A stretch of DNA of 64,000 nucleotides from Candidatus Campbellbacteria bacterium (GCA_024653945.1 JANLIT010000004.1:13281-77280); one strand, 5' to 3'. Shown: positions 55,787 to 59,979, numbered from the stretch's first letter. Notes: generated by a model not told the origin, from the letters alone. A program made the numbers and translations.

Positions 55787-58700
55787 TTATGCCTCTTGAT
55801 TTTGAGAGAACGTGTATGCGCCACCAATACGTGTAAACTGTCGTTCTTTAATAACATCCAATACACGGACAAGGGCAAGACGAACTGATGTATATGCTGA
55901 ATCGTAGCGTTCATCAACACCCTGCAACAGTTCACCAATAATTACCTCTAGCTCGTTATTTGAAAGATGATACGTTACTTCTGCAATGTGCGGATTGACC
56001 GTTGTCTTTTCTTCAGCACCCTCAAGTCGTGCGCGATGTGCGTTGTCAAGTTCCGCTACCACTTTTCGCATAAAGTCGGCTACTGGTTGTTCTTGTGATT
56101 TGAGCATACGGAGAAATCCGAAGATGTTTTTGTCTTCTGCTCGCACCATCCATTCAACAAACAATGGAACCATTGAAAGTGTTGAAATAAAGAGTGCCTC
56201 GCGAACGCGCCCTTTATCGAGCACAAGCCATCCATCTTCTCGTGGGTATCGTGTCTTTGCAATTTCGACAACTTGTAACAATCGTTCAATTGCTTTCTTT
56301 TCGTCACCTTCTGCTGAGTGTACAACAAGTTTCATACCATCCTCAGACACCAGCGCTTGAGATGAACGTGCCACATCTTGTAGTCGAGCAAGTGAAACGG
56401 TGCTTTGAGCAACGGCATGCTCACGCTGTGCAACCATGCGCACTGCGAGTGATTGTGCAACAACATCAGCTACAGGAATTGCTGGAGCAATGGGAAGATC
56501 TACGGGAACCTCTGCAATAATTGGCTGAACACGAGATGTGTATTCATCGTACGCAGAAAATGTGTCTACTTCAGGAAGATTTTCTTCAAGAATCGGTGCA
56601 ACGTCTTGGACGTAGTGTGTGCTCGTGGGTGAAACTACCTCAAATACGTTCTCGTTTGTGCGTCGACGTGCAATGACATAGGTTACCCCACCAGAGATTG
56701 CGAGCAAACCAATGATAAAGAGGAGTATCTGGAAGAGGCTTGTTCCAAGACCCGTGTACGGAACCTGTGTTAGAGAAATTGAAGAACCGAGAACTTCGGG
56801 AGTACTGAAGAGAACAACCTTCGGACGGTGGCCACTGCCCCCACCACCTCCGCCACCCCCATCGTCATCGTCGTCGTCATCGTCGTCACCTCCGCCCCCT
56901 GCATTGTCATTGTTCGTGATGGTACATGTTTTATCTTGTCCTGCAGCAAGTGTCACTGAACCATTTGCAGCACAGTCACCACCCCACACGCTTGCGGTAT
57001 AGCCAGAAAGTTGGTTTTCAAAAATAAGATAGTTGGCTGGAGCAAATTTGTTTGTTTCACCGCTTATAACAAGTACTGTTGGTGCATCAATTACCGTTGG
57101 TATTTCACTGTTTACTCGCTCAACGTACAGATTAAAATCTGAAACTTGCTTAGTTCCACCGTCGTCGTTAATGACCGTCTTAATAACCGTCAGTGTTGCA
57201 CCATTTTGAATGATTGGATTGTCGTTGTTTACAATCGTACATGTTTTTGTTTGTCCTGCGACAAGTGTCACGGTGCCGTTTGCGGCACAGTCACCTCCCC
57301 ATGCGCCGGCTGTATATCCGGGAAGCTGGTCTTCAAAAACAAGGTAGTTGGCGGGGGTAAACTGATTAGTTTCACCACTTATGACGCGCACTGTTGGTGT
57401 AGTACTTATCGTTGGTACTTCACGGTTCACTCGCTCAACATACAGATTGAAATCCGAAACCTGTTTTATTCCACCATCATCATTGATAACTGTTTTGATT
57501 ACCCTCAACATTGCTGGATTTGAAATAATTGGGTTGTCGTTGTTGGTGATTGTACATGTTTTATTTTGGCCTGCAGCAAGTGTCACTGAACCATTTGCGG
57601 CACAGTCACCACCCCACACGCTTGCGGTATAGCCAGGAAGCTGGTCTTCGCGAACGGTGTATGCTCCAGCGGCAAACTGGTTAGTTTCACCGCTTATAAC
57701 AAGTACTGTTGGTTCCTCATCGAACACTCGATCAACATACAAATTGAAATCAGCAACTTGTTTAATACCACCATCGTCGTTAATGACTGTCTTAATGACT
57801 GTCAGTGTTGCCGGGTTTGTAATGATTGGATTGTCGTTGTTGGTGATGGTACATGTTTTTGTCTGTCCTGCGACAAGCGTGACCGTACCATTTGCAGCAC
57901 AGTTTCCACCCCATGCGCTGGCTGTATATCCGGGAAGTTGGTCTTCGTGAACAGTATATGCTCCAGCGGCAAATTGGTTTGTTTCACCGCTTATAACAAT
58001 GACATTGCCTACATAGAGTTTGAAATCTGAAACCTGCTTGATACCGCCATCGTCGTTAATAACGGTTTTTATAAGTCTAAGGTGTGCAGGATTTGGTATC
58101 ACTGGATTGTCGTTGTTCACAATCGTACATGTCTTGCTTTGTCCTGCGGCAAGTGTCACGGTGCCATTTGCGGCACAGTCACCTCCCCATGCGCTTGCGG
58201 TATATCCGGGAAGTTGGTCTTCGTGAACTGTGCGTGTACCTGGCTGAAGGTGTTGCGAAACACCACTGACAAAAGGAATACTGTCTGCATACAGATGAAA
58301 GTCAGCAACCTGCTTAATACCGCCGTCGTCGTTAATAACGGTTTTTATAATCGTAAGTGTTGCTGGATTTGAAACTGGATTATCGTTGTTGGTGATGGTA
58401 CATGTCTTGTTCTGTTCTCCGGAAAGTGTCACCGAGCCGTTCGCCGCACAATCACCTCCCCATGTGCCAGCTGTATATCCGGGGAGGTTGGTTTCAGACA
58501 CGGTGTATGTTCCTGCGTGAAAGTAGTTATTAACACCACTCGTTACTGGTGTGGTATTTACGAACAAGGGAAAATCAGAAACGACTGCGGTTCCACCGTT
58601 GTCATTGATGACAGTTTTGGTAACGGTGAGTTTTGGTCCACACAAAGGCAAAGGATAGGACGCGAATTCCCAGTCAAAAACCGTGTAGGCCGGCAATTGC

Positions 58701-59251
58701 GCAAAATCTGGGTTTGTCTGAGGTGCGGCTGGGCCTTCAAAGAAATCGGATTGATACTGACACGTGGTAGGTTGTGACCTTGATATTGTTATTGTTGCAC
58801 CAGGTCCAATCGAGTCTTCGTTATCGCTATAGAGTGTTTGTGTTGCAAGGAACGTTGTGTTCGAACCCGGTTCCCACTCATCAAATACCTTGTATGTAGC
58901 CATGTGAATTGAATATGTACACTCTGTTGAGAAATTTTTTACTTCAACTGATGTGGGAAGGTTACCAGTGACGATAAATGGATCACCGTTTGGATGACGG
59001 AGGTCTGCTCGTGGATTAGGAACACATGTGGATGGCTCGTGGGTTCCGCCACCAGTAGGAGGGGTTACTTCAGCACTTTTGGTAGCCACCGTAGCACCTT
59101 CAATTGTTGCTTGCTGTGCAAGCATTGCACTTGGCACCACAACAGAGGCGACGAGGAGTAATGACACTCCTGCCCCGAGAAAATTAGATCGAACTGATTG
59201 TGTAATTGTTTTTAACATATGTATTTGATTAGTATATGTACGTTTGCGCAT
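55787..59251 (-). CDS. large cell-surface protein with eight tandem ~90-aa repeats, a Gly/Asp linker, an internal VPYTG motif plus TM plus RRR, and a ~290-aa C-terminal (predicted cytoplasmic) domain
   Basis: Signal peptide; repeats LxVIKTVINDDGGIKQVxDF.LYV...CTITNNDNP x8; DDDDDDDDDGGGGGGGG; LTQVPYTGLGTS, then a hydrophobic stretch LFQILLFIIGLLAISGGVTYVIA, then RRR. Confidence 0.65.
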   Translation of the reverse strand: MRKRTYTNQIHMLKTITQSVRSNFLGAGVSLLLVASVVVPSAMLAQQATIEGATVATKSAEVTPPTGGGTHEPSTCVPNPRADLRHPNGDPFIVTGNLPTSVEVKNFSTECTYSIHMATYKVFDEWEPGSNTTFLATQTLYSDNEDSIGPGATITISRSQPTTCQYQSDFFEGPAAPQTNPDFAQLPAYTVFDWEFASYPLPLCGPKLTVTKTVINDNGGTAVVSDFPLFVNTTPVTSGVNNYFHAGTYTVSETNLPGYTAGTWGGDCAANGSVTLSGEQNKTCTITNNDNPVSNPATLTIIKTVINDDGGIKQVADFHLYADSIPFVSGVSQHLQPGTRTVHEDQLPGYTASAWGGDCAANGTVTLAAGQSKTCTIVNNDNPVIPNPAHLRLIKTVINDDGGIKQVSDFKLYVGNVIVISGETNQFAAGAYTVHEDQLPGYTASAWGGNCAANGTVTLVAGQTKTCTITNNDNPIITNPATLTVIKTVINDDGGIKQVADFNLYVDRVFDEEPTVLVISGETNQFAAGAYTVREDQLPGYTASVWGGDCAANGSVTLAAGQNKTCTITNNDNPIISNPAMLRVIKTVINDDGGIKQVSDFNLYVERVNREVPTISTTPTVRVISGETNQFTPANYLVFEDQLPGYTAGAWGGDCAANGTVTLVAGQTKTCTIVNNDNPIIQNGATLTVIKTVINDDGGTKQVSDFNLYVERVNSEIPTVIDAPTVLVISGETNKFAPANYLIFENQLSGYTASVWGGDCAANGSVTLAAGQDKTCTITNNDNAGGGGDDDDDDDDDGGGGGGGGSGHRPKVVLFSTPEVLGSSISLTQVPYTGLGTSLFQILLFIIGLLAISGGVTYVIARRRTNENVFEVVSPTSTHYVQDVAPILEENLPEVDTFSAYDEYTSRVQPIIAEVPVDLPIAPAIPVADVVAQSLAVRMVAQREHAVAQSTVSLARLQDVARSSQALVSEDGMKLVVHSAEGDEKKAIERLLQVVEIAKTRYPREDGWLVLDKGRVREALFISTLSMVPLFVEWMVRAEDKNIFGFLRMLKSQEQPVADFMRKVVAELDNAHRARLEGAEEKTTVNPHIAEVTYHLSNNELEVIIGELLQGVDERYDSAYTSVRLALVRVLDVIKERQFTRIGGAYTFSQNQEA
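56900..58650. repeat. eight near-identical ~270-bp tandem DNA repeats inside the surface-protein gene
   Basis: Recurring blocks such as gcacagtcacc(a/t)ccccacacgcttgcggtatagcc and attgtcgttgtt(c/g)acaatcgtacatgt at about 270-bp spacing. Confidence 0.7.
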
Positions 59252-59289
59252 TATACATCCCTAAAAATTAAAAGTCAATACCTCTCTAT

Positions 59290-59979
59290 TTAGCGTGCAG
59301 TGAGGTCGTAGCTACCAACAAAATCCGATTCAACAACATATCGTTCCTCTTTTTGACCAAACGAATTGCATGTTGAAAGCGTTAATTTTTTTCGTGTGCT
59401 TGAAAAGTTCACACGTACCTCATCTTCGTTAACGAGTGATACTTTTGTCACGCGATACACATACTCTTTTGTTTTTGACTGCACGCGGACGAGATCTCCT
59501 TCACGTGCATCCTTTAAACCACTGAATGCTTTGAATGCTTGGTTTTGTACAACACGAAAACCTGTGCTGTGACCGAAAAGAAATATGTTGCTTACATCTT
59601 CCAAATCACCCGAACCTGGATAGCGGACCGCGCCACTCAAAAGTGCCGTATCAAGAATTTCAATGTCACGACTTTCTGGATTCACAATCAGTGTATCAAC
59701 ACCAATACGCTCAATAATAATTCGCACTGGTGCACTATCCTCTTGCACGGCATCTGTGGATTGTGGCACTGTCGTGTTCGCAATTGCAACTGTGGGGGTT
59801 TCTGTTTCAAGTTTTGGTACCAAACCAAGAGCAAATGAAATACCCAGGAGAACGATAAAAAAACCGCTCCACAGGATGCCGACAAGCACCGGATGCTCTT
59901 TTAGAAGTGCAAAAAGGTCACTCACCATGCTTTGGGAATATGTGTTTTTTTGCCTTGTTTGTGCAGTTTTCTTTTGCAT
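59290..59979 (-). CDS. sortase family transpeptidase (second copy)
   Basis: N-terminal TM helix; NIFLFGHSTGF (His); KLTLSTCNSFG (TLxTC Cys); downstream Arg. Confidence 0.75.
   Translation of the reverse strand: MQKKTAQTRQKNTYSQSMVSDLFALLKEHPVLVGILWSGFFIVLLGISFALGLVPKLETETPTVAIANTTVPQSTDAVQEDSAPVRIIIERIGVDTLIVNPESRDIEILDTALLSGAVRYPGSGDLEDVSNIFLFGHSTGFRVVQNQAFKAFSGLKDAREGDLVRVQSKTKEYVYRVTKVSLVNEDEVRVNFSSTRKKLTLSTCNSFGQKEERYVVESDFVGSYDLTAR

Follow-up and report, generated by a model that had tools for sequence, protein, structure and literature searches.

The canonical sorting signal, typified by protein A and the sortase SrtA of S. aureus, combines a P-x-T-G motif having an available T-G bond with a transmembrane (TM) helix and an arginine cluster, and is served by a membrane-anchored cysteine transpeptidase with a His/Cys/Arg triad. 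To our knowledge, the definition of LPXTG-type signals, and of all analogous prokaryotic sorting signals, is that of a tag at the C-terminus which is thrown away. Here we describe a locus at positions 55,787–59,979 of a 64,000-nucleotide stretch of DNA (hereafter, the window) from a Candidatus Campbellbacteria bacterium (GCA_024653945.1 JANLIT010000004.1:13281-77280), in which a sortase gene is paired with the gene of a 1154-residue surface protein. All the canonical elements recur in this pair, whereas the signature is LSQ(V/I)PYTG and the signal is internal, being followed by ~290–340 residues that include a conserved folded domain.

Specialised sortases encoded beside their own non-LPXTG substrates are found in dedicated operons (class B SrtB-IsdC with NPQTN, class D, class E with LAXTG, and class F). 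The present locus shares this arrangement but differs in that the pairing is apparently one-to-one, the substrate carries a predicted cytoplasmic domain, and the locus lies among housekeeping genes [gyrB, aminoacyl-tRNA synthetase (aaRS) genes and ychF]. The PEP-CTERM/exosortase, PGF-CTERM/archaeosortase, GlyGly-CTERM/rhombosortase and MYXO-CTERM/myxosortase systems also use tripartite signals (PMC3237569; 10.1101/2023.06.07.544157). They have in common with this locus the tripartite design and a co-occurrence of motif and enzyme that comparative genomics can detect; their signals, however, are terminal, many-to-one per genome and served by unrelated enzymes, whereas the signal described here is internal, apparently one-to-one and paired with a true sortase. 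In Streptococcus gordonii, the C-peptide left over from sortase cleavage is sensed by a two-component system (PMC11326707), a precedent for a membrane remnant of sortase cleavage carrying biological information. That remnant is only a ~30-residue signal read by a separate kinase, whereas the remnant here would carry a conserved cytoplasmic domain of 200 residues.

A predicted internal sorting signal within a conserved module

The surface protein is encoded by one unbroken open reading frame (ORF; 55787–59251, stop codon included) and the 229-residue sortase by another (59290–59979), both on the minus strand, confirming the pairing that an initial annotation of the sequence had proposed. The protein begins with a signal peptide or hydrophobic segment (aa 1–46; 59114–59251), in which aa 22–46 exceed a Kyte-Doolittle value of 1.6. 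This is followed by a cysteine-containing N-terminal ‘tip’ domain (aa 47–207; 58631–59113), read from the sequence and resembling a region of the orthologue at a syntenic locus, L001. The stalk (aa 208–783; 56903–58630) comprises six SpaA_2 prealbumin-like repeats of 84–97 residues each, rather than the eight first counted (Pfam PF19403, 216.7 bits over six stretches, above the gathering score), and leads into an acidic/glycine linker, A-G4-D9-G8-SG (aa 784–806; 56834–56902), with similar D/G linkers in homologues. Beyond the linker is the sorting motif LTQVPYTG (aa 827–834; 56750–56773), with a predicted scissile bond between T833 and G834.

Immediately after the motif lies a TM helix (aa 836–862; 56666–56746) with 19-residue Kyte-Doolittle values of 1.8–2.46, at a position conserved across the family, and then the stop-transfer cluster RRR (aa 863–865; 56657–56665), where homologues also have R/K clusters. 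Apart from the number of repeats, sequence and hydropathy are as first annotated, from the signal peptide and the Asp9/Gly8 linker through to the arginines. Beyond RRR are a further 289 residues (aa 866–1154), matching the ~290 initially described; counted from the motif the extension is 320 residues, as compared with 281–343 in homologues. It consists of a variable A/P/V/E-rich linker, delimited by alignment and containing VDLPIAP (aa 866–950; 56402–56656), and a conserved C-terminal domain of ~200 residues (aa 951–1154; 55790–56401). The domain is helical, as was claimed, but that description falls short, since profile searches and structure prediction give it a more specific likeness to domains II and III of clamp-loader subunits (see below). 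The mature protein has 16 cysteines, every one of them in the ectodomain, while the tail has none; this distribution fits an outside/inside topology about the helix.

Five relatives were found with the C-terminal 349 residues as query. Three of these have a different ectodomain, with He_PIG repeats in place of SpaA_2, and yet keep the D/G linker, the segment ‘VVLFS.PEVLG.SISL.Q(V/I)PYTGLG’, the TM helix, the basic cluster, the variable linker and the strongly conserved C-terminal domain of ~200 residues. The tail and the motif lie in one ORF at every homologous locus examined, which answers the concern that the tail might be a separately encoded gene joined on by a frameshift. At L002 a single open frame starts at the contig end and takes in PYTG, TM helix, RRR and tail, and in L001 the gene is broken only by a run of N within the repeats. 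The fusion of the motif-TM module with the tail is genuine, being neither a frameshift nor a chance occurrence of the motif.

To define the family, a profile of the tail domain was run against 1.84 billion representatives. At 50% identity, 493 clusters match at E ≤1e-3, of which 53 match at E ≤1e-30; architecture and motif were surveyed in the ~150 top-scoring of these 493. In the top 151, the tail domain always lies within 30 residues of the C-terminus, in host proteins of about 250–1500 residues. A P-x-T-G motif stands directly before a TM helix in 117 of the 123 representatives that extend 110 residues or more upstream of the domain, in a census drawn from tail-domain matches (a 60-residue profile of the sorting module alone matched nothing at E ≤0.01, its own seeds included). 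The family logo reads [AS]-F-[VI]-[YT]-L-[SD]-Q-[VI]-P-Y-T-G-[FVL]. Across 115 aligned representatives, P, T and G are invariant (115/115 each) and Y (111/115) and L at −4 (114/115) nearly so, placing the motif under constraint far above that of its surroundings; Q at −2 is found in 100 of the 115. The internal, sorting-signal-like motif of the initial annotation belongs to one conserved module of motif, TM helix, basic cluster and tail. The cytoplasmic linker varies in length (median about 75 residues), and the tail domain is better conserved than the ectodomain, whose stalks swap between SpaA_2 and He_PIG.

Twenty genomic loci were recovered, all from metagenome-assembled genomes of Patescibacteria of the Paceibacteria/Parcubacteria type; Campbell-, Wolfe- and Taylorbacteria are represented, as are ‘Paceibacterota’. 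The tail has no Pfam or NCBIfam model, and no description of the module came up in literature searches on the motif, on Patescibacteria sortases and on internal LPXTG signals joined to a cytoplasmic domain; the layout of this family appears to be undescribed so far.

The sortase and its linkage to the motif

The dedicated sortase carries an N-terminal TM anchor and matches Pfam Sortase PF04203 (peptidase C60) at 70.6 bits, against a cut-off of 26.6. Its predicted catalytic residues, His137 (in LFGHST), Cys204 (in TLSTC; TLxTC) and Arg213, are invariant in 17 orthologues. The enzyme scores below the cut-off of every NCBIfam model for classes A–F and GN, including class D (39.8–40.1; cut-offs 140–165) and class E (36.5; cut-off 160). 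The closest solved sequences are 2ln7, 2kw8 and 4d70, which we take to be class D/A enzymes; they match at E 1e-13 to 1e-10, over the C-terminal half only. Class was judged from these NCBIfam and PDB sequence matches and not from the single-sequence model, whose predicted local distance difference test score (pLDDT) is 48.1. The initial annotation had counted two unusual sortase-substrate pairs in the window. This description holds for the pair described here, in so far as its sortase fits no NCBIfam class, but not for the other sortase of the window, an ordinary member of class F (182.4 bits; cut-off 166). Within the 64 kb, only the 1154-residue protein has P-x-T-G followed by a TM helix.

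Sortases were sought among the six-frame ORFs of every locus, first with the sortase from the window and then with a hidden Markov model (HMM) of its orthologues. In each of the 18 distinct motif-bearing genomic loci for which upstream DNA exists, a sortase of this type stands directly upstream of the substrate on the same strand, with gaps of about 0–100 nt. Scanning metagenomes for a remote subfamily (...LDQVPYTGFEAGP...), whose tails are about 27–30% identical to that of the window, added 10 loci with upstream DNA, about 8–9 of them distinct, and each has a sortase directly upstream. In total, the sortase adjoins its substrate in about 26 of 26 assessable distinct motif-bearing loci. In the remote-subfamily loci, an extra gene of ~225 aa stands between the CARDB partner (described below) and the sortase (L023 4475–5152, and the equivalent gaps of L030–L041); it has no Pfam match and no counterpart in the window.

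Four variants lack the motif (P0090, P0106, P0114 and P0135). These are two-TM proteins of 333–375 residues, recognised by their tails (E-values 1e-15 to 3e-20), in which an N-terminal TM helix takes the place of the ectodomain; ‘LSQ’ is kept and PYTG is lost. No sortase was detected by hmmsearch (E ≤1) in the four distinct motif-less loci (L025, L026, L027/L028 and L029), where, in three of the four, the available DNA reaches only ~0.85–4.3 kb upstream. The association between presence of the motif and presence of the sortase is significant (Fisher exact p about 3e-5). Judging from these loci, sortase, motif and ectodomain are gained or lost together. The sortase-less loci lie in the same chromosomal neighbourhood, where the tail gene sits between gyrB and an aaRS gene, dnaE and rnhB. 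In two other loci, a dnaX gene (gamma/tau, 341–344 aa) lies about 5 kb downstream of the tail-bearing gene (L019 7931–8965 and L020 8078–9103).

The third member of the cassette is a single-pass membrane protein with a CARDB domain, encoded in the window directly beside the sortase on the same strand (357 aa; 60092–61165, minus strand; Pfam CARDB 32.6 bits). A CARDB homologue is found in every locus examined, with a length of ~195 aa in the sortase-less loci. Because it is present even where the sortase is absent, the conserved unit is the CARDB protein together with the TM-tail protein.

Fold of the tail, proposed cleavage and its alternatives

The tail sequence has no match in Pfam at E ≤10 and none that is significant in NCBIfam or the PDB. 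Sub-threshold HMM matches cover the lid of RFC5 and of RFC4 (E 0.13–2), and the NCBIfam models of the RFC small subunit match at the lid with E 0.009 (15.1 and 13.7 bits; cut-offs 303 and 317). An AlphaFold2 model of the domain, built from a 41-sequence alignment, has a pLDDT of 92.6 and a predicted template-modelling score (pTM) of 0.85, and displays a small alpha/beta-hairpin subdomain (domain residues ~10–67) followed by a seven-helix subdomain. Foldseek returned 27 matches in the PDB at E ≤1e-3 (best E 2.8e-5), and its top 50 consist solely of clamp-loader chains: E. coli gamma, delta and delta', B. subtilis delta (YqeN), and yeast and human RFC. These alignments span about 190 columns with query-normalised TM-scores (template-modelling scores) of 0.45–0.49 and identities of 12–17%.

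Profile-profile comparison by hhalign agrees with the structural matches. The family profile aligns with a profile of 120 Paceibacteria DnaX proteins (Prob 71.8%, E 3.5e-5, score 40.9), pairing tail residues 6–133 with DnaX 158–277, a stretch made up of the AAA+ lid and the beginning of domain III. Chance similarity between helical proteins was rejected as an explanation by controls, as reversed DnaX scored 14.3 and 20 block-shuffled versions at most 20.1. The AAA+ ATPase domain I (Walker A/B, SRC) is absent, with only the probably disordered linker between the TM helix and the lid. The tail is thus predicted to be a membrane-tethered domain with the lid (domain II) and collar (domain III) fold of DnaX/RFC clamp loaders, lacking the ATPase. 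In the models it has in common with clamp-loader subunits (DnaX gamma/tau, HolA delta, HolB delta' and RFC) the AAA+ lid and helical collar; it differs from them in its TM tether, in having no ATPase domain I or P-loop, and in reaching no Pfam (DNA_pol3_gamma3 / Rep_fac_C) or NCBIfam RFC threshold. The collar is the oligomerisation element of clamp loaders, and the most economical guess, which is also our leading one, is by analogy that the tail acts in oligomerisation or in binding or docking a partner through its collar-like domain.

The cytoplasmic linker is probably disordered. It carries the short motif [ND][LIV]P (often P-x-N-L-P-T/V) in 41 of 120 cases, as against 9.4±2.8 in shuffled linkers. 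[ND][LIV]P usually lies 15–35 residues ahead of the tail domain, and an ‘AYEEY’ patch is also common to close relatives; both may be docking motifs.

On balance, and with modest confidence, we favour a mechanism in which the dedicated sortase cuts PYT|G, so that an adhesin becomes linked to the wall and a membrane-anchored cytoplasmic domain is left to function separately. In this reading the locus is a lineage-specific cassette of three genes in Patescibacteria (Paceibacteria/Parcubacteria), encoding the CARDB membrane protein, the dedicated sortase and the modular surface protein. The signal peptide would export the surface protein, and PYTG-TM-RRR would halt export, so that the final ~290 residues come to lie in the cytoplasm. 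The adjacent sortase, acting through Cys204, would recognise [LSQ][VI]PYTG on the outer face of the membrane, cut between Thr833 and Gly834, and pass the ectodomain (tip, stalk and linker; aa ~47–833) to a cell-wall acceptor. The remnant, Gly834–Ala1154, would stay behind as a single-pass membrane protein with a clamp-loader domain II-III-like cytoplasmic domain. This remnant is probably a functional product in itself, acting with its CARDB neighbour, because the TM helix, the tail and the CARDB gene persist where ectodomain, motif and sortase have been lost. The proposal of the initial annotation, that cleavage would separate an ectodomain from a membrane-tethered cytoplasmic domain, is supported as far as sequence analysis reaches.

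Several points weigh against this mechanism. The adjacency of the genes is also compatible with a partnership that involves no cleavage, and the sortase, judged by its sequence matches, fits no characterised class. The clamp-loader likeness is remote (12–16% identity, TM-score 0.45–0.49, Prob 72%) and says little on function, as it covers no catalytic element.

We regard it as unlikely, though a credible alternative, that the protein is never cut and serves as an intact trans-envelope tether or receptor, with LSQVPYTG as a juxtamembrane structural or docking element and a sortase that has other substrates or binds without turnover. The motif does lie within a longer conserved segment, VVLFS.PEVLG.SISL.QVPYTGLG, that could be a folded element, and LSQ survives in the motif-less variants; a large conserved cytoplasmic domain would also suit an outside-in link, and the literature searches found no sortase substrate with a comparable tail. 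However, it is precisely the sortase signature, P-x-T-G, that is invariant, and a TM helix and a basic cluster come after it. The sortase, which has kept its catalytic triad, is adjacent in about 26/26 motif-bearing loci and, within the DNA available, absent in 4/4 once PYTG is lost, and no other candidate substrate exists within the 64-kb window.

If cleavage does occur, the tail might act only beforehand, as a targeting, retention or quality-control handle, leaving a functionless stub to be degraded. The basic cytoplasmic tail of canonical signals merely retains the precursor, and the linker here is variable and probably disordered. The remnant C-peptides of Gram-positive bacteria are by-products, though they can be sensed (PMC11326707). 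This reading, which we hold to be rather improbable, is weakened by the four lineages that have neither ectodomain, motif nor sortase and still keep the TM helix and tail at a syntenic position, where nothing is left to sort. It also sits poorly with a domain that is conserved above the ectodomain, on which stalk types have been swapped.

A pilus-type polymerase acting on a polymerised, rather than wall-anchored, SpaA-domain pilin is very unlikely. Dedicated sortase-substrate operons are typical of pili; SpaA-type prealbumin-like domains are likewise typical of sortase-assembled pilins, but also of adhesin stalks. The pilin reading was rejected because the YPK(N) motif is absent from the whole protein. 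In addition, each locus has a single substrate gene rather than a set of major and minor pilins, the score with the class C sortase model is 26.9, far short of the cut-off of 160, and orthologues have He_PIG repeats instead of the SpaA_2 stalk. We likewise reject, as having a negligible chance of being right, an assembly or annotation artefact (a frameshift, or a chimeric contig fusing an LPXTG-type protein with an unrelated gene): gene callers do split off the tail in P0001 (305 aa), P0004 (220 aa) and P0002 (442 aa), but these short calls end at contig ends or N runs while the frame stays open through motif, TM helix and tail, as in L001 and L002, and the same single ORF recurs in over 26 independent loci, drawn from different samples, and in over 100 representatives of the family.

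Should the sortase indeed cleave at PYT|G, a wall-anchored adhesin and a membrane-anchored cytoplasmic protein would both arise from a single precursor, which would be a new logic among sortase substrates. Here, a sortase-type signal forms an internal hinge between two conserved halves, each presumably functional, in a family of at least 493 clusters at 50% identity. Within the literature searched, a sortase-substrate system that combines such an internal signal with a conserved, predicted clamp-loader-like cytoplasmic domain appears to be unprecedented. The locus is near-universal in its clade, stands amid housekeeping genes, and offers a directly testable enzyme-peptide pair in the sortase and LSQVPYTG. 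It bears on how Patescibacteria (the Candidate Phyla Radiation, CPR) build their envelopes and attachment structures, and on the roles of their many conserved ‘hypothetical’ membrane proteins. The clamp-loader-like fold is unexpected for a membrane protein and provides a concrete handle for interaction studies.

More speculatively, the collar-like tail might dock onto, or replace a subunit of, the DnaX clamp loader or replisome, or dock onto another AAA+ assembly, and so tie chromosome replication or segregation physically to one fixed site on the envelope of these ultra-small bacteria; we consider this a long shot. If it were true, cleavage of the surface-protein precursor would give a wall-anchored adhesin and, with it, a membrane anchor that holds the replication machinery, and the conserved position of the gene among gyrB, dnaE, dnaX and rnhB would reflect function rather than mere synteny.

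Surroundings of the locus in the window

Two small ORFs of 74 and 78 aa lie downstream of the substrate gene (55091–55629, minus strand), and counterparts of 80 and 75 aa occupy the equivalent positions in L001 and L002. Neither has a family match. The first, directly downstream (74 aa; 55405–55629, minus strand), encodes a small protein with a TM segment and a Thr-rich sequence and may be part of the locus. Synteny between L001 and the window extends over the CARDB protein, the sortase, the substrate, the two small ORFs and YchF. In L001 the order goes on to a methyltransferase, gyrB and pheT, whereas in the window synteny ends at 62000–64000, and this block is probably an insertion because of that break. 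The block has a GC content of 0.528, compared with about 0.44 elsewhere, and contains a 397-aa ORF (62058–63251, minus strand) with a weak match to IS110-family transposases. Context genes typical of Patescibacteria include a DUF5671 membrane protein (52381–53316, minus strand) and a homologue of the protein called DUF8128 in L001 (47282–48595, minus strand).

The class F sortase (216 aa) belongs to a separate locus at 4764–12454 on the minus strand, and directly downstream of this sortase is the gene for a secreted protein with a CAP/SCP domain (3672–4754, minus strand), another context gene typical of Patescibacteria. The same locus holds two SpaA/SdrD_B-repeat proteins of 605 and 1639 aa. 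Their N-termini are near-identical and their C-termini identical, ending in ...GGGEVLGEVLGEQTSILPLGAP[AN]TGFGGLKMCLY*. These proteins have 10 residues only beyond P-x-T-G, with no TM helix, and the sequence past the stop codon would be K/R-rich.

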